Notes: generated from the letters alone by a model not told the origin. Positions 4,925 to 22,213 are shown, counted from the stretch's first letter. The stretch: 64,000 nt of DNA from Desulfobacteraceae bacterium UBA2156 (GCA_002328165.1 DCWS01000077.1:1624-65623), one strand, 5' to 3'. Program-made: numbers and translations.

Positions 4925-5206
4925 ATGAACGAACAAGCGCTGGGTATGGTAGAGACCCGAGGACTGGTAGGTGCCATTGAGGCTGCCGATGCCATGGTCA
5001 AAGCCGCAAAAGTGAGATTTGTGGGAAGGGAATTTGTAGGTGGCGGTCTTGTGACGGTTTTCGTCCGCGGGGATGTTGGTGCGGTTAAAGCGGCAACAGA
5101 TGCCGGCGGTGCGGCGGCCGGAAGGGTGGGCGAACTCATCTCAGTACATGTCATCCCAAGGCCTCACGGAGACGTTGAGTTTACTATTCCCAAGGCGGAA
5201 GAATAA
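4925..5206 (+). CDS. BMC-H shell protein (PduA/EutM-type hexamer)
   Basis: 93 aa. [24 protein letters not shown]...[11 protein letters not shown]...VHVIPRP is a canonical single BMC domain. Good RBS (aggagga) upstream. Confidence 0.9.
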
Positions 5207-5397: not shown

Positions 5398-5700
5398 ATG
5401 GCTCTAAACATTCAGTTTATAACCCACCCCGGACCCGGTGTCATCAGCATCTTGATGACCCGGATGAGCACATCCGGTCGAAAAACGGTTGAAATGATCG
5501 ATTTGAGCGCCGTTGGGCTCGTCCAGGGTCGTTTGATAGATATGATCTACGCGTCTGATATCGCAGAGAAGTCTGCAAACGTTCAGGTTTTTGATCTCAA
5601 AGGAACCTGTCCGCAACATCTGACGATGATCGGTATTTTTGGCGAGATTGCGGCTGTGAAAGCCGCGCTGGATGCCATATCCGCTGAGGAGGGATTGTAG
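5398..5700 (+). CDS. Circularly permuted single-domain BMC shell protein (EutS/PduU-like)
   Basis: 100 aa. AVGLVQGRLIDMIYASDIAEKSANVQV...GEIAAVKAALDAI aligns by eye to the permuted PduU/EutS order. Confidence 0.65.
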   Translation: MALNIQFITHPGPGVISILMTRMSTSGRKTVEMIDLSAVGLVQGRLIDMIYASDIAEKSANVQVFDLKGTCPQHLTMIGIFGEIAAVKAALDAISAEEGL

Positions 5701-5762
5701 CAGTGGATTTCATCGATTTGGTGTAATCCGATCATTGTAAACAAGCGTAAAGGTAGTTGGGT

Positions 5763-6053
5763 ATGATACTCGGTAAAATTGTCGGAGATGTCTGGTCGAC
5801 CAAAAAGAATGACAAAATCCATGCGTTAAGACTTCTCTTTGTCCAGCCCCTGGGGAAGGATTTAACCCCGTGCGGAGAAATGCTGATTGCTGCAGATGAG
5901 ATTGGGGCAGGGATGGGGGAGATGGTAATTGTCACTCAAGGCGCACCGGCCATGCAGGCATTTAACAAAGATTCGTTGATTCCTGTGGATGCCGTGGTGG
6001 TCGGTATTGTCGATAACCTTGAAATACCGGAAAAGCCAGACGCCGACGGATAA
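5763..6053 (+). CDS. BMC-P vertex pentamer (EutN/CcmL family)
   Basis: MILGKIVGDVWSTKK...LLFVQP...IAADEIGAGMGEMVIV..G...VDAVVVGIVD is a typical EutN/CcmL pattern. ATG 5763 is preferred over the TTG at 5757. Confidence 0.85.
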   Translation: MILGKIVGDVWSTKKNDKIHALRLLFVQPLGKDLTPCGEMLIAADEIGAGMGEMVIVTQGAPAMQAFNKDSLIPVDAVVVGIVDNLEIPEKPDADG

Positions 6054-7391
6054 ATGATAAAACAGGAGATTGTAGAAAAAGTCAGGGCCGCAGGCGTCGT
6101 AGGGGCAGGTGGCGCCGGTTTTCCCACCCACGTCAAACTCGAAGCGGATGTTGAAAGGGTGCTCGGGAACGGGGCATCCTGCGAACCGCTTCTGATGAGC
6201 GACCTTTTTTTGGTGGAGAACGAGTCAGAAGATATTCTCAGCGGCCTTTCCATGGTGATGCAGAGCACTGGGGCCGGACGTGGAACCCTCTGTCTCAAAG
6301 AGAAACATTTCGAAGCCTTTGGCACACTGGAAAAAATGATCTCAAAGCACAAAATAAAAGATATCGATATTTTTAGACTGGGTGATTTTTATCCGGCAGG
6401 CGACGAAATGGTTTTGGTCTATGAAGTAATGAATCGGGTGGTGCCTGAGGGTGGCTTCCCGCTACAGGTGGGGGTTGTGGTAAATAATGTTGAATCTCTT
6501 CTCAACATTGCCCGGGCTGTAAAAACCGATAAACCCGTTACCGAGAGATATCTGACCGTTGCCGGGGAGGTGCAAAAAAACTTGGTTGTGAAAGTGCCGG
6601 TCGGTATTTCTGTGGGTGAAGTCATAAACCTTGCCGGCGGTGCAACCATTAGTGATTTTAAAGTTATTGTCGGGGGACCGATGATGGGGCAGGTTGTCAC
6701 CGATCTTTCCACGTCGGTGGACAAGACCACAAGTGGAGTAATTGTTCTACCCATCAATCATAATGTCATTGCCGGCAAAACAGATGATCCGGAAAGAATC
6801 AGACAGATTACCCGTTTGTTTTGTTGCCAGTGTTCGCGGTGCACGGATCTGTGCCCAAGGACACTGCTGGGTCATTCCCTTGAATCCCATAAAATTATGC
6901 GGCAACTAGGGGTCGGGTCCCAGCTGGTCTCCGAGGCGTTGTTAGAGGATGCGCTCATCTGTTCAGAATGCGGCATATGTGAAAAGTTTGCATGTCCGAT
7001 GATGATTTCTCCACGGGAGGTCAATGCACAGATCAAGAGAGAAATGATGGAAAAAGGTGTCGACAGATCTCCCAAAAAGATCGACTATCAACCCTCGGCT
7101 TTCAGAGATGTTCGTAAGATCCCAACCAAAAGGCTTATGGAACGTTTGCAGGTGAGCCGGTACGACCAACACCCTGAAATTTTTACAGGGAAAATAGAGG
7201 TAAAAAAAGCAACGATTCCGTTAAAGCAGCACATTGGAGCACCGGCAATACCTGTGGTTAAAACCGGAGACCGTGTCGATAAGGGAGATCTCGTCGGGGA
7301 GATTCCGAATAAGACATTGGGTGCCAGGGTCCACGCCAGCATCTCCGGTGTGGTGGAATCCGTGGGAACGGACGTTGTAATCCGACAATAA
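6054..7391 (+). CDS. PduS/RnfC-like Fe-S flavoprotein (NADH-binding SLBB-type, two 4Fe-4S motifs)
   Basis: 445 aa. N-terminal GVVGAGGAGFPTHVKL, then CCQCSRCTDLCP and CSECGICEKFACP cluster motifs. Located inside the shell gene block. Confidence 0.8.
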   Translation: MIKQEIVEKVRAAGVVGAGGAGFPTHVKLEADVERVLGNGASCEPLLMSDLFLVENESEDILSGLSMVMQSTGAGRGTLCLKEKHFEAFGTLEKMISKHKIKDIDIFRLGDFYPAGDEMVLVYEVMNRVVPEGGFPLQVGVVVNNVESLLNIARAVKTDKPVTERYLTVAGEVQKNLVVKVPVGISVGEVINLAGGATISDFKVIVGGPMMGQVVTDLSTSVDKTTSGVIVLPINHNVIAGKTDDPERIRQITRLFCCQCSRCTDLCPRTLLGHSLESHKIMRQLGVGSQLVSEALLEDALICSECGICEKFACPMMISPREVNAQIKREMMEKGVDRSPKKIDYQPSAFRDVRKIPTKRLMERLQVSRYDQHPEIFTGKIEVKKATIPLKQHIGAPAIPVVKTGDRVDKGDLVGEIPNKTLGARVHASISGVVESVGTDVVIRQ

Positions 7392-7469: not shown

Positions 7470-8021
7470 ATGGATTATAAGGCCATCGGGCTCATTGAAA
7501 CAAATAGTGTTGCCAAAGGAATTGAGTGCGCCGATGAAATGATCAAGGCAGCTGCCGTGGAGCTTTTGATGGCCCGCAGCGCATGTCCGGGCAGATATTT
7601 GGCGATGATCTCAGGTGATGTAGATTCAGTCGAAAATTCCGTCGATGTTGGAAGCGAAGTGGCCGGCGAGTTTCTTGTTGGAATATTTATCATTCCCAAT
7701 GTGCATTCAACGGTCTTTCCGGCTTTGGGCTGTGTCACCCCGATGCCTTCGATGAATGCCCTGGGTATCATCGAAACATTTTCCACTGTTTCTTGTATTG
7801 TTGCGGCCGATGCCGCGGCAAAAGCAGGGGATGTTGAACTGATTGAGATTCGCTGTGCCACAGGTCTGGCCGGGAAATCCTATGTCACACTGACCGGCGA
7901 CGTCGGATCGGTTAATGCTGCTGTTGATGCCGGTATCGCTGAAGTGGCGGAAGAAGGGATGATACAGAGCCATGTGGTTATCCCTTCCCCAAGCAAGGAG
8001 CTTTTTTCAAGACTGGCATAA
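7470..8021 (+). CDS. BMC-T tandem-domain shell protein, PduT-like with conserved pore cysteine
   Basis: 183 aa with two BMC domains (AIGLIETNS..., ALGIIETFS...). ARSACPGRYLAMISGDV aligns with the PduT segment TICPGKFLLMLGGDI that carries the [4Fe-4S]-ligating Cys. Confidence 0.8.
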   Translation: MDYKAIGLIETNSVAKGIECADEMIKAAAVELLMARSACPGRYLAMISGDVDSVENSVDVGSEVAGEFLVGIFIIPNVHSTVFPALGCVTPMPSMNALGIIETFSTVSCIVAADAAAKAGDVELIEIRCATGLAGKSYVTLTGDVGSVNAAVDAGIAEVAEEGMIQSHVVIPSPSKELFSRLA

Positions 8022-9663: not shown

Positions 9664-9749
9664 TCAATCATGCGATCGGTATTTCCCATCAAAAAAGAAG
9701 CATTAGAAAAAAACCTTTGGTTAAAATTTCACATCAGGGAGACATATTT

Positions 9750-10367
9750 ATGGCTGAACTGAGGGCCTTTTGTCATTTGGATCGGATGCAACCACAGTTT
9801 GCATCTTTATTTGCGTCCCGCTGCCGCGGTTTCCTCTCCGTGGAGGGTATGGCCTCTTTATTTGTGGAGGTGGTCCCCGGCATTGAAATCAATCGCTTAA
9901 CTGATATTGCCCTAAAAATTACAGGTTCTCTCCCGGGTGAGATGATTGTTGAGCGTCGTTACGGGATGCTGGAAATCCATTCCTTTGAGCAGGAAGAAGT
10001 GCTTCACGCCGGTCAGATGATTTTGGATGAACTGGATTTAAAAGTAGAAAATCGACTGGCGCCGGCTATTTTAACAACCAGCGTAATCAACAAGGTTGAT
10101 CCGTATCAGGCGGTGATTATCAACCGCAACAGCAGTGGAATGCTCATTTTAGGGGGTGATGATGTTTACCTTCTAGAAGTTACACCGGCTGCCTATTCTT
10201 CCATCGCAGCCAACGAAGCGGAAAAACACTGCAATATACGACTGGTTGATATCCGGTTCTTTGGAGCTGCCGGGCGGGTCTACATGGCAGGAAGCGAATC
10301 CGAAATTCAGGCAGCGGCAAAAAAAGTGGTTGACACCTTAACCGGTCTTGAGGGGAGAAACCAATGA
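9750..10367 (+). CDS. BMC-T tandem permuted shell protein, CcmP/CsoS1D-like (double-stacking type), paralog 1
   Basis: MAELRAFCHLDRMQPQF...VEVVPGIEINRLTDIALK...VERRYGMLEIH...AANEAEK...FGAAGRVYMAG matches the remembered CcmP sequence pattern along its whole length. ATG 9750 with RBS agggaga. Confidence 0.7.
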   Translation: MAELRAFCHLDRMQPQFASLFASRCRGFLSVEGMASLFVEVVPGIEINRLTDIALKITGSLPGEMIVERRYGMLEIHSFEQEEVLHAGQMILDELDLKVENRLAPAILTTSVINKVDPYQAVIINRNSSGMLILGGDDVYLLEVTPAAYSSIAANEAEKHCNIRLVDIRFFGAAGRVYMAGSESEIQAAAKKVVDTLTGLEGRNQ

Positions 10368-10383
10368 TTGGAGGATTTAACCG

Positions 10384-10740
10384 ATGCAACAGGCTTTGGG
10401 ATTGATTGAAACAAGAGGGCTGGTGGCTGCCATTGAGGCTGCAGACGCGATGGTTAAAGCTGCCAACGTCAAACTGTTGGGCCGTCAGAAAGTCAAAGGC
10501 GGATTGGTATCTGTCATGATTTCCGGGGATGTGGGTGCTGTTAAAGCAGCTGTCGATGCAGGCTCGGCAGCATGCGGGAAGGTGGGTGAGCTTGTTTCTA
10601 TCCATGTCATCCCCAGGCCGAGAGACGATATTGAGCATATTATTCCTAAAGGACCGCCAGAGGAAAAGCCGGCGGATAAGAAAAAAACACCAGCTCGGAA
10701 GCGGAAACCAAAAAAACATCATAAAAGTCAGGGGAAGTAA
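10384..10740 (+). CDS. BMC-H shell protein with ~30-aa lysine/arginine-rich C-terminal tail
   Basis: 118 aa. Canonical BMC domain ([24 protein letters not shown]...[11 protein letters not shown]...IHVIPRP), then [28 protein letters not shown]. Confidence 0.9.
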
Positions 10741-11331
10741 GTGGCACCTGTTTTTATATTCATCGAAGATATCCAGAAGGCTCTAGATTCGGACAAAAAG
10801 GAAATCATGATCCCCCGGGAGACGAGAATTTCAGCGGCAGCCTTCGATCTGATTAAGGGCAATGACATCCGGATTCGTTTTGTTGGCGATCAAAAGGATG
10901 ATGCTTTAAAAGCGCCTGTCGATCCGACGCAGGAGACGCAGGCATCTCCTGCTGTTGGCCGGATATCAGATGGAGAACTGGAAAAAGTTGTCGACCTAGT
11001 TATCAGCCGAATCAAAGGGGCCAAGAGTCAAGAATCCTCTGAAACCGTGAAAAAAGAAAACGGACCTACGGATGACGACCTGGTGATTTGCCGGTGCGAG
11101 GAGATTACCAAGGGAGAGATCAAGGAAGTGATCAAAAATGGGATAAAGACCCCAAATGGTATCAAGCGTATTACCCGGGCGGGGATGGGGCTTTGTCAAG
11201 GACAGACATGCCAGCGGTTGGTGACGCAGATTCTGGCCACCGGGCTCGGTATCAATCCGACTGAGATTAAACCGACGACAGGACGGGCGCCGGTCAGACC
11301 GGTTTCTTTTTCGGCTTTTTCGACTGGATAA
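10741..11331 (+). CDS. BFD-like [2Fe-2S] protein with N-terminal ~45-aa domain and an internal amphipathic helix
   Basis: 196 aa. C-terminal ICRCEEITKGEI...GMGLCQGQTCQ is the Fer2_BFD motif found in HcnB/OoxA-type enzymes. The N-terminus aligns to the C-terminus of the 8860 ORF. GTG start directly after the preceding stop. Confidence 0.6.
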   Translation: MAPVFIFIEDIQKALDSDKKEIMIPRETRISAAAFDLIKGNDIRIRFVGDQKDDALKAPVDPTQETQASPAVGRISDGELEKVVDLVISRIKGAKSQESSETVKKENGPTDDDLVICRCEEITKGEIKEVIKNGIKTPNGIKRITRAGMGLCQGQTCQRLVTQILATGLGINPTEIKPTTGRAPVRPVSFSAFSTG

Positions 11332-11375
11332 TGCAAAAGATATTTCAACATTCCCCATAAACAACGGGAGAACAG

Positions 11376-12581
11376 ATGCCCAATAAAGCAGATGTGGTCA
11401 TTATCGGCGGTGGTGTTACGGGGAACGCCATTGCATATAACTTGGCCAAAGAAGGACTAAAACCAGTCGTTATCGAGAAGTCGGACATCGGAGGAGAAGC
11501 CTCCGGTAGCACTGGTGGCGGTGTCCGCCAGTCGGCTCGAAATCTGAAAGAGATGCCTATGGCCATGGAAAGCATTCGCTTATATGGCCAACTCCATGAA
11601 GAATTGGGCATGGATGTTGAGTATGTCAGGGAAGGGAACCTTCGATTATGTACCAGTGAAGAAGAATTAGAGACCATGCGCACCTCTGTTGAAAATCAGA
11701 AATCGGTCGGGCTCAATCTTGAGATGATAGACCGAAAACAGATTCTGAAAATCAACCCCTTTGTGGGCGAAAAAGTAATCGGTGCCGGCTACTGCCCCAC
11801 AGATGGCCATGTGAACCCCTTCCTAGTCACCTATGCTTTTTTTAAAAAAGCAAAAAGTCTTGGCGCATTGTACCACACCCATGAGGAAGTGACCGACATA
11901 AGACTGAGGAGGGGTAAAGTGGTTGCGGTCATTACCGATAAACAGGAGGTTGAAACTGATCTGGTGGTCAACGCCGCAGGGATAACCGGGCGAAAGGTCG
12001 CAAATATGGTTGGGATCGATCTGCCGATGCGGCCGGTTTTTACCGAGGCTTTGATAACCGAACCTTACCCACCTTTTTTTAAACAGATGATCGGACATGC
12101 CAAAGGACTTTTTTACGGCCGCCAAACGGTTCATGGCCCCTTTCTTTGGGGTGGCTTTGTTGGCACCGAAACGTTTATCCACCAGGGAGGCAAGCCACTC
12201 TTCCACTTTATCGGTCCCGCCATTTCCCGGATGGTGATTGACTTTTTTCCCATTCTTAAAGATTTCCATGTCATTCGCACATGGTCCGGACTCATCGCTC
12301 AGATGTCTGACGGAATACCGGTTCTTGGCCTGGTTGATGAAGTCCCCGGGTTTGTGTTTGCGACAGGATTCAGCGGGCACGGTTTTGGACTGGCTCCTGT
12401 AATCGGCCGGCTCATTTCAGAATTAATTATGGATTGCGAAGCTTCTATTCCGATAAATGACTTCTGTTATTCACGGTTTTACAGAGGCGGTGATCACGAA
12501 TGCGCTTGTAAAGGAAACGCGGCCTGTACAACAGTTACCGCCATCTGTCCCAACAAAAGGGAATGGCTGAAAAGTATATGA
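11376..12581 (+). CDS. FAD-dependent oxidoreductase, DAO family (SoxB/HcnC/OoxB/LhpB/proline-dehydrogenase beta-like catalytic subunit)
   Basis: 401 aa. DVVIIGGGVTGNAIAYNLAK dinucleotide fold, GYCPTDGHVNP, and the GFSGHGFGLAPVIG C-terminal motif typical of sarcosine-oxidase-beta-like enzymes. Cys-rich C-terminal tail. Confidence 0.8.
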   Translation: MPNKADVVIIGGGVTGNAIAYNLAKEGLKPVVIEKSDIGGEASGSTGGGVRQSARNLKEMPMAMESIRLYGQLHEELGMDVEYVREGNLRLCTSEEELETMRTSVENQKSVGLNLEMIDRKQILKINPFVGEKVIGAGYCPTDGHVNPFLVTYAFFKKAKSLGALYHTHEEVTDIRLRRGKVVAVITDKQEVETDLVVNAAGITGRKVANMVGIDLPMRPVFTEALITEPYPPFFKQMIGHAKGLFYGRQTVHGPFLWGGFVGTETFIHQGGKPLFHFIGPAISRMVIDFFPILKDFHVIRTWSGLIAQMSDGIPVLGLVDEVPGFVFATGFSGHGFGLAPVIGRLISELIMDCEASIPINDFCYSRFYRGGDHECACKGNAACTTVTAICPNKREWLKSI

Positions 12582-12595: not shown

Positions 12596-13207
12596 ATGGT
12601 CGAACTCAGGGCTTTTTCCTATATGGATGAATTGCAAAAACAGTTTGTCGGTTACATCAGCACAACTGCCCGTGGGTATTATCCGGTTGCCGGCCAGGCG
12701 GCATTATTTTTAGAAATTGCCCCTGGAATCGAGATCAATTCACTTACGGATGTACTCATGAAAAAAGCGAACGTTCGACCCGGTGCCATGGTCGTGGAAA
12801 GGATCTTTGGCATGTTGGAAGTGCATGCGGATTCCCCGGCGGACGTTCATATGGCAGGTGAAGTGGCATTGGATTACTTGGGACTAAAGGAAGGCGACAG
12901 GCTAAAACCAAAAATATTGGCGACCGAAACCATAGAAAGAATAGAGCCCTATATGAGTCAGATCGTCAACCGCTTTCGGGACGCCAGCATGGTTTTATCA
13001 GATGAAACTCTTTATATCTTAGAATGTGTTCCAGCCGGGTATGCTGGATATGCGGCCAATGAGGCTGAAAAAAAAGCCGATATCAAGTTGATCCACCTCA
13101 CTGTCTTTGGTGCCACCGGCCGGGTCTATTTGGCCGGAACCACCTCCAACATTCAAGCAGCGAAAGAGGTGGCAGAAAGTTCTTTATTGGCATTGGATGG
13201 CAGGTGA
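12596..13207 (+). CDS. BMC-T tandem permuted shell protein, CcmP/CsoS1D-like, paralog 2
   Basis: 203 aa. ELRAFSYMDELQKQF...LEIAPGIEINSLTD...VERIFGMLEVH...DRLKPKI...AANEAEKKA...FGATGRVYLAG. Clear paralog of 9750-10367. Confidence 0.7.
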   Translation: MVELRAFSYMDELQKQFVGYISTTARGYYPVAGQAALFLEIAPGIEINSLTDVLMKKANVRPGAMVVERIFGMLEVHADSPADVHMAGEVALDYLGLKEGDRLKPKILATETIERIEPYMSQIVNRFRDASMVLSDETLYILECVPAGYAGYAANEAEKKADIKLIHLTVFGATGRVYLAGTTSNIQAAKEVAESSLLALDGR

Positions 13208-13231
13208 AACCGATAAACTCTTTTTGATTTT

Positions 13232-14188
13232 TTGCTTATGAATTCAGCTAAAAAAGATTTATTTGATAAAATTGTCAGGGTCTACCCCAATCTTTCTCCC
13301 AAAAAGAAACGGGTAGCGGATTACATTATCAAAGATCATAAAAAGCTTTTTCTGATGACTGCCAGAGAGATTGCTCAGGAATGCCGGGTCAGTGAGCCAA
13401 CCATTATTCGGTTCACAAACGACCTCGGGTTTTCAGGATATCAGGGGTTTGTTCAGTACATGAAGGGACTCCTCCATATCGAATTGACGGCGGTTGAAAG
13501 ACTGATAAAGGCCAGCCAGCAGTCAGACCAAGCGGATACCCTCGACAAATATTGTCAAAATGCAATACGCAATCTTGAAAATTTACGAAGTTCGATCTCT
13601 AAAAAGGAGCTGAAAAGAGTTGCCAGGGTCATTCATAATGCTGAACAGGTATATGTTGTCGGGTATCGGGCATCGACCACATTGGCTTTTTATTTCGGTT
13701 ATCTCCTCGGTAAAATTCTCGAAAATGTCTTCCTGGATACATCCCTATCCTGGAAACTCATGGATAAAATCGCGCGAAATGGCAAATCAAGCGTTATGTT
13801 TGTTATCGCTTTCCCCAGATATCCGCTGAAAGTTATTCGCCTTCTGGAATATGCCAAAAGATATCGGGTAAAAATCATCGGTCTCAGCGATACACCAAAA
13901 TCCCCCATCATCGCGCTTTCTGATCAATATATTCTTATCGACCTTGAATCGGTGTCATTTATAGATCCTTTTGCCCATATAATTACATATCTTGGCGCCC
14001 TGATTCATGAAATTACTTTTTTAGATCAGCAGCAGGCCATGAAATATCTTTCCAGGTTTGACCATGCTGCAAAATCAGGGAAAGAATTCTTCACGGAAGA
14101 AAACGCTGATTTGGAAAAGAAGCAAAAATTCGATCATTCATATCTCACATCATTTTGGCCCGGTGATCACACACATCAACCGGGTTAG
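13232..14188 (+). CDS. RpiR/MurR-family transcriptional regulator (HTH + SIS domain)
   Basis: 318 aa. N-terminal LSPKKKRVADYIIKD...TAREIAQECRVSEPTIIRF HTH_6 pattern, followed by a SIS-like region (VYVVGYRAS...). Confidence 0.8.
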   Translation: MLMNSAKKDLFDKIVRVYPNLSPKKKRVADYIIKDHKKLFLMTAREIAQECRVSEPTIIRFTNDLGFSGYQGFVQYMKGLLHIELTAVERLIKASQQSDQADTLDKYCQNAIRNLENLRSSISKKELKRVARVIHNAEQVYVVGYRASTTLAFYFGYLLGKILENVFLDTSLSWKLMDKIARNGKSSVMFVIAFPRYPLKVIRLLEYAKRYRVKIIGLSDTPKSPIIALSDQYILIDLESVSFIDPFAHIITYLGALIHEITFLDQQQAMKYLSRFDHAAKSGKEFFTEENADLEKKQKFDHSYLTSFWPGDHTHQPG

Positions 14189-14218
14189 GAACAAGTGCTG
14201 AAACCCCGGGAGATCGGC

Positions 14219-15694
14219 ATGCGTCTTGATAAAGGACAAATCGAACAAATAGTTGAACAAGTCGTTAGATGTCTTCAGGCAGAAGGCCCCAAACGGTTGG
14301 ATTCTTTGAGAAACTCTACGGGATATAGCGGGATAGCAGATGGTGTCTTCCAGGACATGGAAGATTGTATCCAAGCCGCTTCCACCGCTCAAAAAAGACT
14401 GTTGGCTCTGCCGTTAACCGTTCGTCAGGAAATCATCCGAGCATTGCGCAGGGTTGGTATCTCCAATGCCGAAACGTATGCCCGACTGGAATTTGAAGAG
14501 ACGAGATTGGGCAAGCTTGAAGATAACGCGAAAAAAAATCTATCCGCATGCGAAGTCCCGGGCATGGAGGATCTTTCCCCTGAGGTCTATACCGGTGATA
14601 AAGGGGTAACCATAATTGAACGAATTCCTTTTGGTGTGATCGCTTCGATAAATCCAATAACCAACGGCTCACCGACGATCCTGCATAATGCTATCATGAT
14701 GTTATCTGGCGGCAACACAGTAGTGAATAACCCCCATCCCAAAACGTGGGGCGTGGCATCCAGGGTGATCAAGGATCTGAACAAAGCGGTCGTTGAGGCC
14801 GGTGGGCCACCGAACTCTATTTGCAGTCTTGAGGAACCATCGGTCGAGTCGGCCCAAAAGTTGATGACACATCCCGGTATAAGAATGATTGCGGTTACCG
14901 GCGGGCACGGGGTTGTGGCATTTGCCACCCAGACCGGAAAACGGGTTATTGCGGGCGGACCTGGGAATCCACCGGTGGTGGTCGATGAAACCGCTGACCT
15001 GAAACGGGCTGCAAAGTCTATCATCGAAGGAGCATCCTTCTCCAACTGTATTGCCTGCTCAAGTGAAAAAGAGATTTTTGTCGTTGAACCGGTGGCTGAC
15101 CGGCTGAAGGAACTGCTGAAGGATTACGGCGCCTTCGAGATCACAGCGGCACAGGGTGAAGAATTGATCAAACATATATTTACGGAAATCAAAGCACCCG
15201 GAGAACCGGGGCTCATCAACATGGATTTTATCGGCCGGTCACCCCGAACGATTTTAAAATCGATCGGTCTGGAAGTGGGTCCTGCCGTAAAGATAGCCAT
15301 TTTGGAAACCGATCGAAACCACCCCCTTGTTTGGACCGAACAGATCATGCCGGTTTTGCCGTTTATCCGTTGCCAGGATGCTGATGACGCCATAGGAGCA
15401 GCGATCGCCGCTGAACAGGGATACGGCCACACAATGGCCATTCATTCCAACAACCTGGAAAACATAAAAAAAATGGCCGGTATGGCCAAATGTGCCGCAT
15501 TTGTTAAAAATGGGTCCTGCGGTCTGGCAAGCGTTGGTGTTTCCGGAGAGGGGTATATCTCAATGCATATTGCGACCAACGGCGAAGGACAGACTCGACC
15601 AAGGACTTTTACCTTGATTAGACGCTGTGTCCTCTCAAACGATTTTCGATATCGTTTTGGGGCGGAGGTCCAGGGCCAATCGAAAACGGAATAG
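14219..15694 (+). CDS. CoA-acylating aldehyde dehydrogenase (PduP/EutE type) with N-terminal encapsulation-peptide-like helix, copy 1
   Basis: GGPGNPPVVVDETAD, catalytic-Cys region SFSNCIACSSEKE, and N-terminus MRLDKGQIEQIVEQVVRCL. ATG 14219 has a GGGAGA RBS and is preferred over GTG 14195. Confidence 0.85.
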   Translation: MRLDKGQIEQIVEQVVRCLQAEGPKRLDSLRNSTGYSGIADGVFQDMEDCIQAASTAQKRLLALPLTVRQEIIRALRRVGISNAETYARLEFEETRLGKLEDNAKKNLSACEVPGMEDLSPEVYTGDKGVTIIERIPFGVIASINPITNGSPTILHNAIMMLSGGNTVVNNPHPKTWGVASRVIKDLNKAVVEAGGPPNSICSLEEPSVESAQKLMTHPGIRMIAVTGGHGVVAFATQTGKRVIAGGPGNPPVVVDETADLKRAAKSIIEGASFSNCIACSSEKEIFVVEPVADRLKELLKDYGAFEITAAQGEELIKHIFTEIKAPGEPGLINMDFIGRSPRTILKSIGLEVGPAVKIAILETDRNHPLVWTEQIMPVLPFIRCQDADDAIGAAIAAEQGYGHTMAIHSNNLENIKKMAGMAKCAAFVKNGSCGLASVGVSGEGYISMHIATNGEGQTRPRTFTLIRRCVLSNDFRYRFGAEVQGQSKTE

Positions 15695-15704
15695 ATGGTA
15701 TGTT

Positions 15705-17141
15705 ATGGATATTGATGAAAAACAGATAGAACAGATCGTAGGGATGGTTCTGGAAAGATTATCTCCATCTGATCAGAAAATTTCTCCTGATCGATCTTTT
15801 GAAAAAGGAGATGGTGTTTTTAGAGAAATGGAGGATGCGATCCATGCGGCGGTGACTGCGCAAAAGCAATTGGTCGGTCTGCCCTTGGCCACACGTGAAA
15901 AAATTGTTCAGGGCATTCGAGATGTTTGCTGGAACAATCGTAAAGAATATGGTCGCATGGAGTTAGAGGAGACCGATATCGGAGCGAAGGAAGGAACTGT
16001 CCTGAAATTGGAAGTGGCGTGCGGTGTTCCGGGTCTTGAAGACTTGACGCCAGAGGTCTTTACGGGGGACCGGGGAATTACCGTTATAGAGAGCATCCCC
16101 GTCGGAGTCATTGCTTCTATCAACGCGGTGACTAATGCTGCGCCGAGCATCGTCAGTAACGCTATCCTGATGCTGGCTGGTGGCAACACTGTGGTCAACA
16201 ACCCCCACCCCAAAACCAAAGTTATTTCCGCCTGCGTGGTTCGTGATATCAATCAAGCCGTCGCCGATTGTGGCGGGCCGCCCAACTGTGTGAGCACCGT
16301 CGAAAACCCGGACATCCCCTCTGCGCAGCATCTGATGACCCACCCCCAGATCAATTTGATTGCGGTAACAGGCGGGCATCGGGTGGTTGAATTTGCCACT
16401 CAAACCGGCAAACGTGTCATCGCAGGCGGGCCTGGAAATCCACCGGTGGTGGTCGATGAAACCGCCGATTTAGATAATGCCGCCCAGTGTATTGTTCGGG
16501 GTGCTTCTTTGAGCAACTGTACCCCTTGTTCCAGTGAAAAAGAAATTTTTGTGGTAAAAACTGTTGCCAACCAATTAAAGGATCTCCTCAAGAAACACGG
16601 TGCATTCGAACTTACTGCTGAACAGGGCAGCGATCTGATTAAAGAGATATTCAAAGAAATTCGACCCGGCAGAGGCCCCAGTGTGATCAATATGGATTAT
16701 ATCGGCAAGCCCCCTCAGGTAATTTTGAAAAGGGCGATCGGACTGGAGATCCCGCCTGACACAAAAATTGCCATTTTGGAAACCGACAAGGAACACCCGC
16801 TCATTTGGACCGAGCAGATCATGCCGATTCTCCCGTTTGTCAGATGCCAGGATGCAGATGAAGCCATGGACATGGGGATTGCGGCTGAACAGGGGATGCG
16901 TCACACCATTGTTTTTCACTCCAATGATTTAAAAAACATCGCACGGATGGCGAGCATAGCCGATGCCTCTCAGTTTATCAAAAACGGGTCATCCATTGCA
17001 GGCCTCGGCGTTGAGGGAGAGGGATTCAAATCTCTGCACATCGCCACCGGCGGGGAAGGATTGACCCGGCCAAGGACATTCACGCTGGTCAGACGGTGTA
17101 TCCTCACCGATGATTTTCGATATCGGTTTGGGTCATTATGA
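15705..17141 (+). CDS. CoA-acylating aldehyde dehydrogenase (PduP/EutE type) with N-terminal encapsulation-peptide-like helix, copy 2
   Basis: Tandem paralog, roughly 60 percent identical by eye. GGPGNPPVVVDETAD, SLSNCTPCSSEKE, and N-terminus MDIDEKQIEQIVGMVLERL. ATG 15705 lies just after the copy-1 stop. Confidence 0.85.
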   Translation: MDIDEKQIEQIVGMVLERLSPSDQKISPDRSFEKGDGVFREMEDAIHAAVTAQKQLVGLPLATREKIVQGIRDVCWNNRKEYGRMELEETDIGAKEGTVLKLEVACGVPGLEDLTPEVFTGDRGITVIESIPVGVIASINAVTNAAPSIVSNAILMLAGGNTVVNNPHPKTKVISACVVRDINQAVADCGGPPNCVSTVENPDIPSAQHLMTHPQINLIAVTGGHRVVEFATQTGKRVIAGGPGNPPVVVDETADLDNAAQCIVRGASLSNCTPCSSEKEIFVVKTVANQLKDLLKKHGAFELTAEQGSDLIKEIFKEIRPGRGPSVINMDYIGKPPQVILKRAIGLEIPPDTKIAILETDKEHPLIWTEQIMPILPFVRCQDADEAMDMGIAAEQGMRHTIVFHSNDLKNIARMASIADASQFIKNGSSIAGLGVEGEGFKSLHIATGGEGLTRPRTFTLVRRCILTDDFRYRFGSL

Positions 17142-17154
17142 CCGTTACCTCCAA

Positions 17155-17586
17155 ATGGGGAACCGCATGGCTATGGACTTAATGAAGAGAGAAAATTTTT
17201 CATCCGGTGCACCTTTGGAAGAAAAAATCGGATACAGCCGGACGGTAAAAATTGGAAATCTTGTATTTATAGGCGGTACAACCACCACCAATTCAAAAGG
17301 GATAGTGGAGGGTGAAGGGGATGCCTACCTTCAGACCAGGATCATACTCGAGAAGATCGAAAAGGCACTGAAAAAGGCAGGAGCCAGACTTTCAGAAGTA
17401 TACCGGGTCCGCATATATGTTACCGATATCAGTCGTTCAGAGGAATACATGCGGGCTTATTCCGAATTTTTCAAAAAGGTTAAGCCAGTTACCATTTTGG
17501 CAGAAGTGAAAGCCTTGGTTCGACCCGCTCATCTGGTGGAGATCGAAGCCGATGCCATTATCGGCTCATATCTTGTGCGCAAATAA
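17155..17586 (+). CDS. RidA/YjgF/L-PSP-family enamine/imine deaminase
   Basis: ~143 aa. GYSRTVKIGNLVFIGGTT...RIYVTD...ILAEVKAL..P..LVEIEADA is the RidA-family pattern. The start among the 17155-17182 ATGs is uncertain. Confidence 0.75.
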   Translation: MGNRMAMDLMKRENFSSGAPLEEKIGYSRTVKIGNLVFIGGTTTTNSKGIVEGEGDAYLQTRIILEKIEKALKKAGARLSEVYRVRIYVTDISRSEEYMRAYSEFFKKVKPVTILAEVKALVRPAHLVEIEADAIIGSYLVRK

Positions 17587-17650
17587 GAACTCAAGTTTCG
17601 CATCTGATATTTTGAGAAAAGCCGCATCAGGCGTATACCTTGGAAGGCCG

Positions 17651-18778
17651 ATGAAACTCCTTGAGCCTACAGAAATAAAGGGTTTACACTTGCCCAATCG
17701 TTTTATCCGTTCTGCCACATGGGAGGGATTGGCCGACGGGGATGGCGCTTGTACACCTGAGCTTGTGGATTTGATGCTCAAACTTGTCAAAGGGGGTGTT
17801 GGCTTGATCATTACCGGTCACACCTATGTCTCTTCAGCCGGGCAGGCCACGCCCTGGCAACTGGGCCTTTACAAAGACAGCCTCATTGAGGGTCTAAAAG
17901 AAATGACCGAGGCGGTTCATCGCGAAGGCGGCAAAATCATTCTCCAGCTGGCCCACGGCGGTCTCATGGCCAGATCCGAATTAACCGGCACCGCCCCTCA
18001 AGGGCCCTCTTCTGAAAAAGGTCAGGATAATGATCCGGGTCGGGGAATGGCCATAGATGAAATTGAGGAAACGATAGCGGCATTTGGCCAGGCGGCCAGA
18101 AGGGCAAAAACAGCAGGCTTTGACGGTGTTCAGATCCATTCAGCCCATGGATATCTTCTCAATCAGTTTCTTTCACTGGCCTTCAACCTACGGGAGGACA
18201 AATACGGGGGATCCATAGAGAATCGCGCCAGAGCGCTTTTGGAAGTCTACCATAGCATCCGGCGGGCGGTGGGCCGTTATTATCCGATCTTGGTCAAGAT
18301 CAACTCCGAAGATTTTATGGAGAGGGGTCTAATCTTAAGCGATGTTATTCGTATTGCTGCCTTGCTGGACCATGCGGGTGTGGATGCAATCGAAGTGAGC
18401 GGCGGAACCTTTGTGTCGGGGCAACTGGGTCCCTGTCGGAACAAAATCATCTTTGAACGGGATCAGGCTTACTTTCGGAAGGCAGCCCGATTGCTAAGGG
18501 CGGCAATTAAGGCGCCGGTGATCCTGGTTGGGGGTATCCGTTCGTATCTTTTGGCGGAACGGCTGATGGTTGAAGGAGTAGCCGATTATATTTCCTTGTG
18601 CCGGCCGTTTATTCGCGAACCCTGGTTAATCAAACGGTGGGTGTCGGGTGATCTTCGAAATGCCACATGTATTTCATGTAACGCGTGTTTCGGTCCGGCC
18701 ATGTCCGGTAAAGGCATTTATTGTGTGGAGGATAGAAAAATCGAGATGCGTGGCAAAAGAAAAGCTTCACCTTATTAA
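17651..18778 (+). CDS. Old-Yellow-Enzyme-family NADH:flavin oxidoreductase with Cys-rich C-terminus (FadH/TMADH N-terminal-module-like)
   Basis: 375 aa. NRFIRSATWEG, IILQLAHGG, GFDGVQIHSAHGYLLNQFLS...R.D.YGGS. C-terminal CISCNACFGPAMSGKGIYC. Confidence 0.8.
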   Translation: MKLLEPTEIKGLHLPNRFIRSATWEGLADGDGACTPELVDLMLKLVKGGVGLIITGHTYVSSAGQATPWQLGLYKDSLIEGLKEMTEAVHREGGKIILQLAHGGLMARSELTGTAPQGPSSEKGQDNDPGRGMAIDEIEETIAAFGQAARRAKTAGFDGVQIHSAHGYLLNQFLSLAFNLREDKYGGSIENRARALLEVYHSIRRAVGRYYPILVKINSEDFMERGLILSDVIRIAALLDHAGVDAIEVSGGTFVSGQLGPCRNKIIFERDQAYFRKAARLLRAAIKAPVILVGGIRSYLLAERLMVEGVADYISLCRPFIREPWLIKRWVSGDLRNATCISCNACFGPAMSGKGIYCVEDRKIEMRGKRKASPY

Positions 18779-19006: not shown

Positions 19007-20065
19007 ATGATAAGAAAAAAAAGCTTTTTAATAAGTGTTGGCGTGTTGGTCATTTTGTTTGCCGCTTCTCTGTGCATTGGTCATTTAACCGCCGAAGCAG
19101 CTCAGAAGGTTTACCGGATGAAGATACAATCGGCATGGCCGCGTGCGGACATATCGATGCAAATGCTTGAAAAGTTTGCAGCCGCCGCAGACAAAAGGAG
19201 TAACGGGCAGATAAAAATCCAGGTGTTTGCCGCACCGGAGATCGTCCCGGGTGAACAGACCCTTGAGGCGACAAAGAAGGGGACCCTGGATATGCTCCAC
19301 AGTATCGGGGCATATTGGGGCGGAACCACACCTATCGGTGAAATCGAGTTCGGTTTGCCCCTAATGTGGGCCATGCCGCTTGGAAAAACAGTCAAGGAGA
19401 ATTCGGAGATTGTTCGAGATTTCTTCCTTAACAGTGGGTTCGCAGAGCTGCTCCGCAAGGAATACGCCAAACAGGGTGTCTACTGGCTGGATATGCACTC
19501 TTATGGTGAGCTTTTTACTCTTGCCAGGGAACCGATCACCAGTTGTGCAGATATGCAAGGGAAAAAGTTCAGGGCAGAAGGCGCCTGGACAGACTTTTAC
19601 AATAATATGGGAGCCCGCGGTACGTTTGTGGATGGCGGGGAGGCCTATATGGCTTTGAGCAAGGGCGTTATCGATACAACTCAGTGGGATGTCAGTGCCG
19701 TTACAGGTATGAATATACATGAAGTGGCTCCGTATCGAATTATGGGTGGAGGGAATGATGTGGTCCCCGGACACATACTGATCAACCTGAAAAAGTGGGA
19801 GGCTCTACCTGATAACCTTAAAGAGGCTCTAAAGGGTGCCGCTAAGGACTATTTTGATACTCTTAACGAAATTTATATGGAAGAAATGAAGAAAGTTGAT
19901 GGGTTGGTGAAGCAAGGCAAAGTCAAACTAAGCTATTTTGATGATGCTTGCCTAAAAAAACATGAAGAAGTCGCCGCTAAATTGTGGGATGAAATCGCTA
20001 AAAGAGACCCGTCGGCTGTAAAGGCTGTCGAATTGGTCAAAGCGTGGAGAAAAACACTGAAATAG
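19007..20065 (+). CDS. TRAP transporter substrate-binding protein (DctP family; resembles the mannitol/chloroaromatic FcbT1-like subgroup)
   Basis: 352 aa. Signal peptide (LISVGVLVILFAASL), then YRMKIQSAWPR...QIKIQVFAAPEIVPG...LDMLHS..AYWGG. Confidence 0.8.
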   Translation: MIRKKSFLISVGVLVILFAASLCIGHLTAEAAQKVYRMKIQSAWPRADISMQMLEKFAAAADKRSNGQIKIQVFAAPEIVPGEQTLEATKKGTLDMLHSIGAYWGGTTPIGEIEFGLPLMWAMPLGKTVKENSEIVRDFFLNSGFAELLRKEYAKQGVYWLDMHSYGELFTLAREPITSCADMQGKKFRAEGAWTDFYNNMGARGTFVDGGEAYMALSKGVIDTTQWDVSAVTGMNIHEVAPYRIMGGGNDVVPGHILINLKKWEALPDNLKEALKGAAKDYFDTLNEIYMEEMKKVDGLVKQGKVKLSYFDDACLKKHEEVAAKLWDEIAKRDPSAVKAVELVKAWRKTLK

Positions 20066-20284
20066 GATAAAAAGCGGTGCTTTTTATTGAAGGCTTTTTT
20101 GCTTTTCGCTTTTCAGCAGAGAGCAAAAAAGTAAAGCGCAGAGGGGGTGGGTTGTTGGTTCCCCGGTTAACAACGTTAGTACTCTTCTTTTTTGTGAAAA
20201 ATCTTATTATTCGCCCCACACCGGATGCGGGTCTTTGTTAAATAAAAGGTGTGAAACTTAAGTTATTGATTCGTAAAGGGGGCT

Positions 20285-20779
20285 TTGGAATTGACCAAAG
20301 GGATTAAGGTTCTTTGTAATCTAGTTGATATTTTTACTCAAAAAACCAGCAAGCCGGCCAGCCTTTTGGTTTTTTTTATGATGGCCGTCACCGCAACGGA
20401 GGTTGTCGCGCGGTATGTGTTTAACAACCCAACCACCTGGGCTTGGCCGGTCAACAAGCAGCTTTTTGGTTTATTTATACTCTTCGCGGGCGTTTATACC
20501 ACCTCTAAAAGCGGTCATATCCGGATCGAAATTTTATATGATAATTTCCCTCCCAAGATTCAATACATCGTAAGATTGATTACCCTGGCAGCATTGATCT
20601 GCTTTATGGGTGTTCTTGTTTGGCAGGGGGCATGGATGGGCTGGAACGCATGGGTGGTTAAAGAGGTGTCTGCACGCGCATTTCGTATCCCTCTGTATCC
20701 TTTTAAATTGCTCATTCCGGTATTTGCCTTTCTTTTCCTGGTTCAGGGAATCGCTGTTTTTATCAAAAGCGAGGATTGA
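20285..20779 (+). CDS. TRAP transporter small permease (DctQ)
   Basis: 164 aa, four hydrophobic segments, positioned between the DctP and DctM genes. TTG start with a GGGGG RBS. Confidence 0.7.
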   Translation: MELTKGIKVLCNLVDIFTQKTSKPASLLVFFMMAVTATEVVARYVFNNPTTWAWPVNKQLFGLFILFAGVYTTSKSGHIRIEILYDNFPPKIQYIVRLITLAALICFMGVLVWQGAWMGWNAWVVKEVSARAFRIPLYPFKLLIPVFAFLFLVQGIAVFIKSED

Positions 20780-20911
20780 TCTTCTTTTAAAAAGTCTTTT
20801 ATGAGCGGCATTGAGTCCCGCCAGCAGCGGGAGAAATAGCGGAATGAAATGCTGAATCTTAAAAATTGTAAATTGTTCGATCCATCCTCAAATGGTTTTT
20901 AGCGGAGGCCC

Positions 20912-22213
20912 ATGAGCACCGAACTGGTGACCGTCATACTGTTTGGAGGACTTATATGTCTTTTAACCCTCGGTGTGCCGGTTGTTTTTGCCCTTGCCAG
21001 CATCAGCATATTAGTTGCCTATATACTGGGGGGCGCCAATGACCTCTTTATAGTCGCCACGACAACCTACCGGCAAATAACCGAATACAGTTTAATGAGT
21101 ATTCCCTTGTTCCTCCTTATGGGGAATTTTTTACTTCACTCCGGCATATCCGATCGTCTTTTCAAGGCTCTCAACTACTGGCTGTCTGGGGTAAGGGGGG
21201 GGTTAGCAATCGTTTCGGTCGGTGTATGTGTTGCCCTGGCCATGTGCGGGGGCTTTGGCCCCGGTATCCTAATGATGGGTCTGATTGCCGTACCTGCCAT
21301 GCTCAAAAGCGGTTATGACAAATCCCTGGCCCTGGGAAGTGTTATGGCCGGCGGGGTGCTTGGAGAAATTATCCCTCCCAGCATCATCATGATTGTTTTT
21401 GCTTTTATTGCACGACTCTCAATTGGCAGGCTTTTTTTTGGGGGGGCGATCCCAGGCTTTATCACCGCATCTCTTTATATTTTTTACATTTCCATGAGGT
21501 GTTATTTCCAACCACAACTGGCCCCCAGGGTCGCCGAGGATGCTACCTGGAAGCTGAGGATGATTTCACTCAAGGAAATTATCCTTCCGGCAATGTTAAT
21601 TTTTATGGTGCTGGGGGCGATTTTCTTCGGAGTTGCAACTCCCTCGGAGGCAGCCGGTGTAGGCGCATCGGGTGCTTTTTTAATCTGTATTATTTATCGC
21701 AGTTTTACGATAAAGGTGGTGCTTGATTCATGTGTTGAGACCATGAAGATCAGCGGTATGGCGCTGTGGATTCTGGTGGCGGCCACTCTTTTCGGAGTTG
21801 TTTATACGATGGCAGGCGCACAATCACTCATCATGGAAATTGTGGAGAGCCTCCATGTGAACCGTTGGTTCATACTTGTGGCGATGCAAATCATCCTCCT
21901 CATATTTGGCGCATTCATGGATGATTATGCCGTCATCACCATATGTGCCCCAATCTTCCTCCCCATTGCCCGCCATCTGGGTTTTAACCCCATATGGTTT
22001 GCAATTGTCTTTATCCTCAACATGCAGGCGGCTTACCTGACCCCTCCGTTTGGTTGGGCCCTCATTTTGATGAAAGGGGTTGCGCCACCGGAAATACACA
22101 CCAAGGACATATGGCGATCAATACCGCCATTTGTTGCCATTCAATTGCTTGTATTGATATTGACCATGCTATTTCCCCAGTTAGCGCTTTGGCTTCCTGA
22201 CAAAATGCTGTAA
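20912..22213 (+). CDS. TRAP transporter large permease (DctM)
   Basis: 433-aa polytopic membrane protein with typical DctM length and motifs (IPLFLLMG, GELIPPSI-like GEIIPPSI). Confidence 0.85.
   Translation: MSTELVTVILFGGLICLLTLGVPVVFALASISILVAYILGGANDLFIVATTTYRQITEYSLMSIPLFLLMGNFLLHSGISDRLFKALNYWLSGVRGGLAIVSVGVCVALAMCGGFGPGILMMGLIAVPAMLKSGYDKSLALGSVMAGGVLGEIIPPSIIMIVFAFIARLSIGRLFFGGAIPGFITASLYIFYISMRCYFQPQLAPRVAEDATWKLRMISLKEIILPAMLIFMVLGAIFFGVATPSEAAGVGASGAFLICIIYRSFTIKVVLDSCVETMKISGMALWILVAATLFGVVYTMAGAQSLIMEIVESLHVNRWFILVAMQIILLIFGAFMDDYAVITICAPIFLPIARHLGFNPIWFAIVFILNMQAAYLTPPFGWALILMKGVAPPEIHTKDIWRSIPPFVAIQLLVLILTMLFPQLALWLPDKML

Follow-up and report, generated by a model that had tools for sequence, protein, structure and literature searches.

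The 64,000-nt stretch of DNA analysed here ("the window"), from Desulfobacteraceae bacterium UBA2156 (GCA_002328165.1 DCWS01000077.1:1624-65623), contains a bacterial microcompartment (BMC) locus of the MIC6 type ("metabolosome with incomplete core"), within which two adjacent genes encode predicted CoA-acylating aldehyde dehydrogenases (AldDHs), termed Ald1 and Ald2 in the following. The overall best explanation, which we consider reasonably probable, is a MIC6 BMC in which Ald1 would act as the core enzyme and Ald2 as a paralog for a second aldehyde, with iron-sulfur (Fe-S) and CcmP-type routes for the cofactors. The incomplete core of such compartments was itself known; new here are about 58 related loci, a two-AldDH subtype (in part with an additional OYE-family gene) in which both enzymes are putatively tagged with an encapsulation peptide (EP) and keep their catalytic residues, and the finding that PduL, Pta and acetate kinase (Ack) are missing from the entire genome.

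Two adjacent PduP/EutE-type aldehyde dehydrogenases

The two genes are neighbours on the plus strand:

14219..15694, + strand: Ald1, 491 aa, CoA-acylating aldehyde dehydrogenase by sequence and read here as the core MIC6 enzyme (NF011927, 527.1 bits versus cut-off 403)
15705..17141, + strand: Ald2, 478 aa, read here as an accessory paralog (NF011927, 515.9 bits versus cut-off 403)

Ald1 starts at the ATG at 14219, with a GGGAG 7 nt upstream, and Ald2 at the ATG at 15705, 10 nt past the Ald1 stop. A first, sequence-only reading of this DNA had described two adjacent PduP/EutE-type genes whose products are roughly 60% identical, and this description agrees with the plus-strand open reading frames (ORFs), with BLASTP (290 of 483 residues identical, 60%, E = 0) and with the scores against NF011927 (PRK15398), a curated EutE/PduP-type "aldehyde dehydrogenase" model with a cut-off of 403 bits. 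The alignments of both proteins to this model span nearly the whole profile, starting from profile position 2. The closest solved structures are 4C3S (339 bits) and 5JFL (325 bits) for Ald1, and 5JFL (346 bits) for Ald2. All motifs that the same reading had listed as common to the pair were found in the sequences, namely GGPGNPPVVVDETAD, the Cys region (NCIACSSEKE / NCTPCSSEKE) and the N-terminal segments (QIEQIVEQVVRCL / QIEQIVGMVLERL). On this sequence evidence, Ald1 and Ald2 are PduP/EutE-type CoA-acylating aldehyde dehydrogenases.

Putative encapsulation peptides

The N-termini of both proteins divide into a predicted helix and a linker, as seen in AlphaFold2 (AF2) models scored by the predicted local distance difference test (pLDDT) and in the orthologs:

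14231..14281, + strand: Ald1 putative encapsulation-peptide helix, residues 5-21, KGQIEQIVEQVVRCLQA (AF2 model, conserved motif)
14282-14341, + strand: Ald1 variable linker, residues 22-41 (varies among orthologs)
15717..15761, + strand: Ald2 putative encapsulation-peptide helix, residues 5-19, EKQIEQIVGMVLERL (AF2 model, pLDDT 72-77)
15762-15812, + strand: Ald2 variable linker, residues 20-36 (AF2 pLDDT <50)

Encapsulation peptides are built as a conserved amphipathic helix with a variable linker behind it, and we regard both N-termini as putative EPs, as had been proposed from the sequence at the outset. In the Ald1 model, the helix covers residues 5-21 and pLDDT drops below 50 over residues 23-36. 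The hydrophobic patterns, xIxxIVxxVVxxL in Ald1 and xIxxIVxxVLxxL in Ald2, fit the published definition of EPs as hydrophobic and hydrophilic residue pairs that alternate (PMC12108088). The Ald1 helix motif is conserved in more than 50 orthologs with varying linkers, the clade consensus being M-x-L-D-E-K-x-I-x-Q-I-V-E-x-V-V-x-x-L for Ald1 and M-x-I-D-x-K-Q-x-E-x-I-V-E-x-V-L-E-x-L-S for Ald2, and the linker columns are gap-rich and lack a consensus in the 52 Ald1-clade and 21 Ald2-clade orthologs. AF2 predicted a helix in both proteins, with a hydrophobic moment that is high in Ald1 (rank 2 of 477 windows) but unremarkable in Ald2.

Nothing equivalent to the first approximately 40 residues is present in homologues from outside BMCs, nor in the EP-truncated 4C3S construct: alignments to PDB entries start at Ald1 residue 42 for 4C3S and at residues 44-57 or later for SucD, AdhE and the Listeria and Geobacillus ACDH enzymes. 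The R. palustris enzyme RpPduP (5JFL), a BMC enzyme with an N-terminal extension of its own, aligns from residue 27. When a hidden Markov model (HMM) of these N-termini was run against all possible N-termini in the genome, it retrieved Ald1 and Ald2 only (E = 1e-10 to 1e-11; next match, E = 0.7), and no satellite cargo with this type of tag was found in the genome. The TIGR02536 "eut_hyp" protein encoded at 8860-9663 of the window has an EP-like amphipathic start of its own, EEIRRFVLDVLKEM, followed by a Gly/Ser/Lys-rich linker. This start and its conservation in about 37 related loci make it a candidate for a protein of the lumen, where it might supply the CoA-handling activity that is missing.

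Related loci and the history of the pair

Species-representative genomes were scanned for related loci, which yielded about 58, with AldDHs 62-92% identical to Ald1 and nearly all from Desulfobacterales and allies, compared with three catalogued. These loci share the order Fer4, BMC-H, GrpU, BMC-P, PduS, PduT, EutJ, eut_hyp and CcmP in their first half and BMC-H, BFD, DAO, CcmP, RpiR, Ald1, (Ald2), RidA, (OYE) and DctPQM in their second half, the bracketed Ald2 and OYE genes being the variable elements. The upstream genes described below recur in G085, a complete locus with a single AldDH: a glutamine synthetase (GS)-like ligase, an Mgs-like trio, Fer2_4 and Pyr_redox_2. About 21 loci have Ald2, its gene in each case immediately behind that of Ald1; a LysE-type exporter gene inserted between Ald1 and Ald2 was observed at L014:11521-12144. 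Locus L033 (CP070746.1, 1-10000) comprises Ald1, RidA, TRAP, an RDH-like gene and a Mo-oxidoreductase, and the 10 kb in front of its AldDH contain no shell gene resembling those of the window. Identity to the window's proteins is 85% for its Mo-oxidoreductase and 80% for its RDH-like protein, much higher than the 66% of its AldDH.

Maximum-likelihood analysis of 91 sequences places the Ald2 orthologs (21 rows) in a single clade with an SH-aLRT support of 100 and a stem of 0.44, and Ald1 with the AldDHs of single-AldDH loci (support 83). The sub-clades of Ald1 and Ald2 mirror each other, pointing to long joint inheritance of the pair. Calling the genes tandem duplicated, as in the sequence-only reading, is misleading, since Ald2 represents an ancient, separately conserved clade; a recent tandem duplication is ruled out by this fully supported clade and by the co-divergence of the pair. 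Compared with locus L003 (92-95% identical), dN/dS is 0.23 for Ald1 and 0.12 for Ald2, and by this sequence measure Ald2 is under purifying selection.

Catalytic residues and acyl pocket

The catalytic set comprises Cys280 (nt 15056-15058), His404/Thr405 and Glu374 in Ald1, and Cys275 (nt 16527-16529), His400/Thr401 and Glu370 in Ald2, the reference residues in RpPduP being the catalytic Cys330, His449 and Thr450 and the NAD-ribose residue Glu419 (PMC5311937). None of the 91 sequences deviates at Cys, His or Glu, and two have Ser in place of Thr. Across the 21 Ald2 orthologs, Cys275, His400, Thr401 and Glu370 are conserved together with the GGPGNPP cofactor motif. An inactive second copy as found in GRM1 loci is ruled out by these conserved catalytic residues. 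Because Ald2 forms its own clade, is under purifying selection and keeps the catalytic residues, it is presumably an old, maintained and active enzyme. A second Cys precedes the catalytic one by three residues (SNCxxC) in all MIC6 AldDHs; it is invariant in the Ald1 clade and at least 90% conserved in the Ald2 clade, and replaces the DNNLPC of canonical PduP/EutE. In a locus that also encodes a DAO-family protein with a 4-Cys tail, this cysteine might have a redox or metal role.

At twenty alignment columns, conservation reaches at least 90% within either clade but the residue differs between the Ald1 and Ald2 clades, and at most of them Ald1 has the state of the outgroup (more distant BMC AldDHs, 43-46% identical) and Ald2 a derived state. 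Derived changes of Ald2 lie next to His404-Thr405 (G403R, M406I and I408F), in the INPxTN loop (P146A) and in the TGGxG cofactor loop, where G231R is fixed in the clade. In addition, the three acyl-pocket positions known from RpPduP (L158/V331/L483) and their equivalents in C. kluyveri SucD (CkSucD K70/S243/T395; PMC10249356) were mapped residue by residue by alignment onto Ald1 and Ald2:

Ald1 clade pocket: S or A at the L158 position, A at the V331 position (S in this window), V at the L483 position
Ald2 clade pocket: V, T or I at the L158 position, S at the V331 position, L or I at the L483 position
Outgroup pocket: mostly V at the L158 position, I, T or V at the V331 position, mostly L at the L483 position

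By way of RpPduP Leu158, the equivalent of CkSucD Lys70 is Ser109 in Ald1 and Val104 in Ald2; the same mapping rules out Ald1 Asn103 for this role. Ald1 has smaller residues at two pocket walls, which would give it a roomier pocket. The Ald2 pocket is nearer to the restricted, PduP-like one but has a hydroxyl beside the catalytic Cys. As judged from the alignment, these differences argue for different acyl groups in Ald1 and Ald2, without naming them. The earlier suggestion of two aldehydes, one per AldDH, gains indirect support here, as pocket positions and neighbours of the His-Thr pair differ by clade and the catalytic residues are kept. The best reading is that of Ald1 as the core enzyme and Ald2 (with OYE) as an accessory module for a second aldehyde.

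The locus belongs to the MIC6 type

From the contig start to about 22 kb, every gene lies on the plus strand. The 1.6 kb of contig upstream of the window contain a glutamine-synthetase-like gene alone. The gene order opens with this GS-like ligase, followed by an amidotransferase/GXGXG/Glu_synthase-FMN trio laid out like N-methylglutamate synthase, and by Fer2_4, Pyr_redox_2 and Fer4 genes. The genes between these and Ald1 are listed below, followed by the transporter downstream; in addition, an EutJ-like gene and then the eut_hyp gene lie between the two-domain BMC-T and the first CcmP-like BMC-T.

4925..5206, + strand: BMC-H shell protein 1 (Pfam PF00936)
5398..5700, + strand: GrpU-type permuted BMC-H shell protein, pore Cys71 (Pfam BMC, partial/permuted match)
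5757..6053, + strand: BMC-P (EutN/CcmL) vertex protein (Pfam PF03319)
6054..7391, + strand: PduS-like NADH/FMN and 2x[4Fe-4S] protein, candidate NADH outlet (Pfam Complex1_51K, Fer4_17, RnfC_N)
7470..8021, + strand: PduT-type BMC-T shell protein, pore Cys39 (two BMC domains)
9717..10367, + strand: CcmP-like double-stacking BMC-T, copy 1 (NF053796, 223 bits, under the cut-off of 340)
10384..10740, + strand: BMC-H shell protein 2 (Pfam PF00936)
10741..11331, + strand: BFD-type [2Fe-2S] protein (Pfam PF04324; MIC6 marker gene)
11376..12581, + strand: DAO-family FAD oxidoreductase with C-terminal 4-Cys tail CACKGNAACTTVTAIC (Pfam PF01266; MIC6 marker gene)
12596..13207, + strand: CcmP-like double-stacking BMC-T, copy 2 (NF053796, 226 bits, under the cut-off of 340)
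13232..14188, + strand: RpiR-type regulator (HTH_6 and SIS domains; Pfam), start codon uncertain, directly upstream of Ald1
19007..22213, + strand: TRAP transporter DctP/Q/M (Pfam), downstream in most related loci

The MIC6 type was defined from three catalogued loci of unknown function in anaerobic Deltaproteobacteria (Sutter et al, 2021; PMC8217296, Supplementary Data 2). Its enzymes are an AldDh with an N-terminal EP, a pfam04324 protein and a pfam01266 protein with a C-terminal 4-Cys tail, and its shell consists of two BMC-H, one BMC-P, two CcmP-like BMC-Tdp, one PduT-type BMC-Ts and one GrpU-type BMC-Hp (PMC8217296). All three marker enzymes (PF04324, PF01266 with the 4-Cys tail and an AldDh with an EP-type N-terminus) are present in the window, the shell set is complete (two BMC-H, BMC-P, two CcmP-like BMC-Tdp, PduT-type BMC-Ts and GrpU-type BMC-Hp), and no shell genes were found elsewhere in the genome. 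The locus is a MIC6-type BMC that matches the catalogue entry in each feature.

The best NCBIfam matches for the BFD/DAO pair (10741..12581) are ThiO and SoxB, both sub-threshold. Encoded inside the shell-gene block, the two proteins together are probably the aldehyde-generating enzyme, and the TRAP transporter is probably the substrate importer. The position of the RpiR regulator is kept in about 50 related loci. A promoter and terminator scan of 12500-20500 revealed nothing exceeding shuffled expectation, and in the literature we found no functional study of MIC6, of Desulfobacterales BMCs or of gamma-glutamyl or N-methylglutamate pathways combined with a microcompartment. Downstream of the transporter, the matches of two short ORFs are confined to the N-terminal part of glycine-cleavage P protein (22314-22673) and to the C-terminal domain of NAD kinase (22769-23113); with matches this partial, the ORFs are probably gene remnants. 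In a similar position, locus L006 shows the apparent start of a GcvPA-type gene, as read from the sequence and unconfirmed.

An incomplete core across the whole genome

The usual explanation of how BMCs work is a private cofactor pool that is recycled within the shell by PduL or Pta and an alcohol dehydrogenase (ADH). We searched the whole assembly (2.94 Mb, 78 contigs, 98.8% complete) in six frames with family profiles, to which control genomes responded. Neither PduL (PF06130) nor Pta (PF01515) nor acetate kinase was found anywhere in the genome. Iron-type ADH (Fe-ADH) genes are confined to contigs C49 and C63 and zinc-type ADH (Zn-ADH) genes to C60, C1 and C12, and no ADH is encoded in the locus or bears an EP, both Fe-ADH proteins beginning directly at the catalytic fold. 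These genome-wide searches, together with the 1.6 kb of upstream contig, rule out a pduL/adh pair just outside the window. The initial observation that the window has no PduL, Pta or Fe-ADH gene thus extends to the whole genome for PduL and Pta, and the compartment with incomplete core suggested from it is confirmed by the MIC6 match; the lack of PduL and ADH is at the same time an already catalogued trait, because the locus is MIC6. PduL was also absent from all five other genomes with MIC6-type AldDHs that were searched. Pta is missing from three of these five as well, and in the remaining two it is represented solely by a long housekeeping form encoded on a different contig. The incomplete core is real, genome-wide and typical of the MIC6 type.

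With the usual CoA-recycling enzymes missing from the genome, this type of organelle must have some other means of dealing with its cofactors. Since carbon monoxide dehydrogenase/acetyl-CoA synthase (CODH/ACS) is present in the genome, acyl-CoA can enter central metabolism without a Pta-Ack branch. PduS, PduT and GrpU are present in all loci covering that region. PduS combines a NuoF-like FMN/NADH domain with two 4-Cys clusters, whose eight cysteines are invariant in 35 orthologs; Cys39 of PduT (SACPG) is invariant in 37 and Cys71 of GrpU (GTCPQ) in 30 orthologs. This conservation is in line with one proposal of the sequence-only reading, namely recycling via the PduS-like protein, for which a role as NADH outlet is plausible. 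BMC-Tdp proteins may pass large cofactors (Sutter et al, 2021; PMC8217296). By analogy we infer that the cofactors are recycled via a PduS/PduT/GrpU iron-sulfur route and CcmP-type pores.

RidA and OYE genes downstream of Ald2

Two genes separate Ald2 from the transporter:

17173..17586, + strand: RidA-family imine/enamine deaminase, no encapsulation peptide (Pfam PF01042)
17651..18778, + strand: OYE-family flavoprotein, TIM barrel of the YqjM kind, C-terminal Cys motif like that of FadH and NCR (Pfam PF00724)

In nearly all related loci, RidA comes after the AldDH gene(s), its orthologs beginning with MDLLKRENF. Neither RidA nor OYE has an N-terminal extension or EP, and the OYE orthologs align from residue 34. 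Among loci with enough downstream sequence, OYE is present in nine of 15 with Ald2 and in none of the 27 with a single AldDH, which is to be read as a pattern and not as a statistic, as the genomes are related and not independent samples. Its absence from all 27 single-AldDH loci and its lack of an EP rule out OYE as a general NAD+ recycler, and the early proposal of cofactor recycling via OYE does not hold as a general solution. A TMADH-type amine dehydrogenase that makes the second aldehyde is unlikely as well, the PDB matches of OYE being YqjM (163 bits), NCR (149) and FadH (130), with YqjM scoring above histamine dehydrogenase (126) and TMADH (103).

Proposed mechanism

From these elements we infer substrates, reaction direction, electron route and CoA passage as follows. 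The N-terminal peptide would target Ald1 to the lumen, where the enzyme would convert an aldehyde to acyl-CoA using NAD+ and CoA. The source of this luminal aldehyde is probably the DAO/[2Fe-2S] dehydrogenase whose genes lie in the shell-gene block. For Ald2, which is catalytically intact, has its own putative EP and shows a remodelled acyl pocket, a different substrate is most likely: a second aldehyde, probably with a smaller or less polar acyl group, that could be formed in a second step of this pathway or derive from a further substrate. OYE, as an unencapsulated ene-reductase, would act in the cytosol on a related unsaturated compound, either the aldehyde or the acyl-CoA. PduS probably re-oxidises the NADH, its electrons passing out via the Fe-S clusters in the PduT and GrpU pores, and the two gated CcmP-type shell proteins are the probable site at which acyl-CoA is exchanged for CoA. 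The acyl-CoA would then pass directly to central metabolism (CODH/ACS, no Pta-Ack branch).

As to the pathway, the GS-like ligase matches type III GS with 316 bits and gamma-glutamylputrescine synthetase with 267 bits, both under cut-off. In about 30 related loci, a class-I amidotransferase/peptidase C26 (PuuD-like) gene directly follows the AldDH gene(s), and in locus L006 a class-III aminotransferase lies downstream. In UBA2156, a PuuD-like C26 gene 60% identical to that of the relatives is located at C36:67585-68295 (- strand), about 2 kb past the window end and about 50 kb from the BMC locus. The Puu pathway comprises two successive aldehyde oxidations. Speculatively, a Puu-like gamma-glutamyl route would contain two successive aldehydes, which would fit the "two-step pathway" option of the sequence-only reading. 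A more specific proposal joins these hints: with no luminal recycling enzyme for either cofactor and with Fe-S and CcmP exits instead, Ald1 and Ald2 would oxidise successive or alternative aldehydes of an anaerobic amine degradation of the gamma-glutamyl type (Puu- or N-methylglutamate-like), and OYE would act on an unsaturated intermediate. We put this forward tentatively, as one possible but rather doubtful elaboration.

Several findings weigh against a core enzyme with a second-aldehyde paralog. The Ald1 of this window has Ser after the catalytic Cys like Ald2, so that the pair does not differ there, and the pocket argument consists of three positions transferred by alignment from enzymes 32-45% identical. 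Most MIC6 loci manage with Ald1 alone, so that Ald2 is dispensable for the core pathway, and six Ald2 loci lack OYE in a set of genomes that are not independent. The AF2 models are modest (mean pLDDT 71.7 for Ald1 and 58.5 for Ald2), and the hydrophobic moment of the Ald2 helix ranks only 22 of 464 windows. Finally, how electrons leave and how CoA crosses the shell is argued by analogy with what the BMC literature has proposed.

Some of these points would suit redundant isozymes that act on the same aldehyde, the second copy serving only dosage or robustness: catalytic residues and kind of EP are the same in both enzymes, Ser follows the catalytic Cys in both window proteins, and most MIC6 loci work with one AldDH. 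We nevertheless regard redundancy as unlikely, because a dosage copy would not persist in 20 or more species as a distinct long-stem clade with 20 fixed differences, several of them at pocket positions or beside the catalytic His, and because the association of OYE with Ald2 loci alone suggests that a function was added. It is even less likely that the pair balances cofactors, with one AldDH working oxidatively and the other in reverse or with a different nicotinamide cofactor, thereby regenerating NAD+ and CoA in the lumen. PduP-type enzymes are reversible (PMC5311937), the cofactor loop of Ald2 carries the fixed G231R, and PduL, Pta and a locus ADH are all missing. However, some 27 or more MIC6 loci have Ald1 only and lack PduL in the same way, so that recycling must be solved without Ald2; moreover, a futile acyl exchange yields no net oxidation, and there is no evident source of a second acyl-CoA inside the shell.

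The conservation of the Ald2 active site bears on two further explanations. Ald2 could be a regulatory or assembly subunit of mixed Ald1/Ald2 tetramers, given that PduP-type enzymes are tetrameric (PMC5311937) and that the two genes are translationally close (10 nt apart) and have co-diverged; this is very improbable, as Ald2 keeps all catalytic residues under strong purifying selection and its fixed changes fall at pocket-defining positions or flank catalytic residues in sequence. Hardly credible is a non-catalytic, structural Ald2 like the cysteine-less second AldDh of GRM1 loci: the precedent exists in GRM1A and GRM3A (Sutter et al, 2021; Supplementary Data 2), yet Cys275, His400, Thr401, Glu370 and GGPGNPP are conserved in 21 Ald2 orthologs. 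A second aldehyde for Ald2 is the reading that we prefer over these alternatives.

Further aldehyde-related genes and significance

Other genes related to aldehydes or acyl-CoA were seen outside the locus and in a relative. Contig C49 (13784-20703) groups one of the two Fe-ADH genes with a paralog of the locus OYE (56% identity) and with a gene that, judged by eye, resembles tungsten-type aldehyde:ferredoxin oxidoreductases; together they look like a separate cytosolic aldehyde-handling cluster. A third acylating-type AldDH (about 26% identical, no EP) is encoded at C13:8575-11960 beside a class-V aminotransferase and a HAD hydrolase (by eye) and may belong to a phosphono- or sulfo-acetaldehyde type route. 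In locus L013, an AAT-family gene (acyl-CoA:6-aminopenicillanic-acid acyltransferase-like; L013:14670-15734) lies downstream of Ald2; such an acyl-CoA-consuming enzyme would free CoA.

MIC6 is a widespread BMC type without PduL, Pta and ADH, in which the absence of CoA-recycling enzymes reaches from the locus to the whole genome, and its members conserve the PduS/PduT/GrpU iron-sulfur set and two gated shell proteins. With this defined gene set, it becomes possible to test directly how an incomplete core recycles CoA and NAD+. The two-AldDH subtype constitutes a natural, putatively encapsulated pair with different predicted pockets, which could help to identify the substrate(s), and its two closely related, putative native encapsulation peptides may serve cargo loading into engineered shells.

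Comparison with known systems

Ald1 and Ald2 share with PduP/EutE (4C3S from C. phytofermentans; 5JFL-5JFN from R. palustris) the Cys/His/Thr/Glu set and the N-terminal EP architecture. They differ in the catalytic loop, SNC(I/T)(A/P)C(A/S)SEKE here versus DNNLPC(V/I)AEKE in PduP/EutE, and in the pocket residues, which deviate from the L/V/L of RpPduP. The succinyl-CoA reductase SucD of C. kluyveri (8CEI-8CEK; 154 bits) belongs to the same superfamily branch but has no EP and is not BMC-associated. Three pocket positions set the acyl specificity of SucD, and the Ser after its catalytic Cys binds the distal carboxylate (PMC10249356). This Ser is common to SucD, Ald2 and the Ald1 of the window, whereas Lys70/Thr395 of SucD correspond to Ser/Val in Ald1 and Val/Leu in Ald2.

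At the level of pathways, the locus resembles the Puu and N-methylglutamate systems in its GS-like ligase, MgsABC-like trio, DAO/SoxAB-like dehydrogenase and aldehyde dehydrogenase; all matches to named equivalogs are under cut-off, however, and the AldDHs here are CoA-acylating by sequence and have putative EPs. Of the complete core of a canonical metabolosome (AldDH, phosphotransacylase/Pta and ADH), only the AldDH is present, with neither a phosphotransacylase nor a locus ADH. Two PduP-type AldDh genes, as found here, are also known from GRM1A, where one lacks the active-site cysteine, and from GRM3A, where only one has an EP (Sutter et al, 2021; Supplementary Data 2); because both copies described here have the cysteine and an EP-type N-terminus, their arrangement is a different variant. 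The MIC6 catalogue, finally, lists "an" aldehyde dehydrogenase per locus, whereas about 21 of the approximately 58 loci considered here have a second paralog with intact catalytic residues and a putative EP, and nine of those have OYE in addition.

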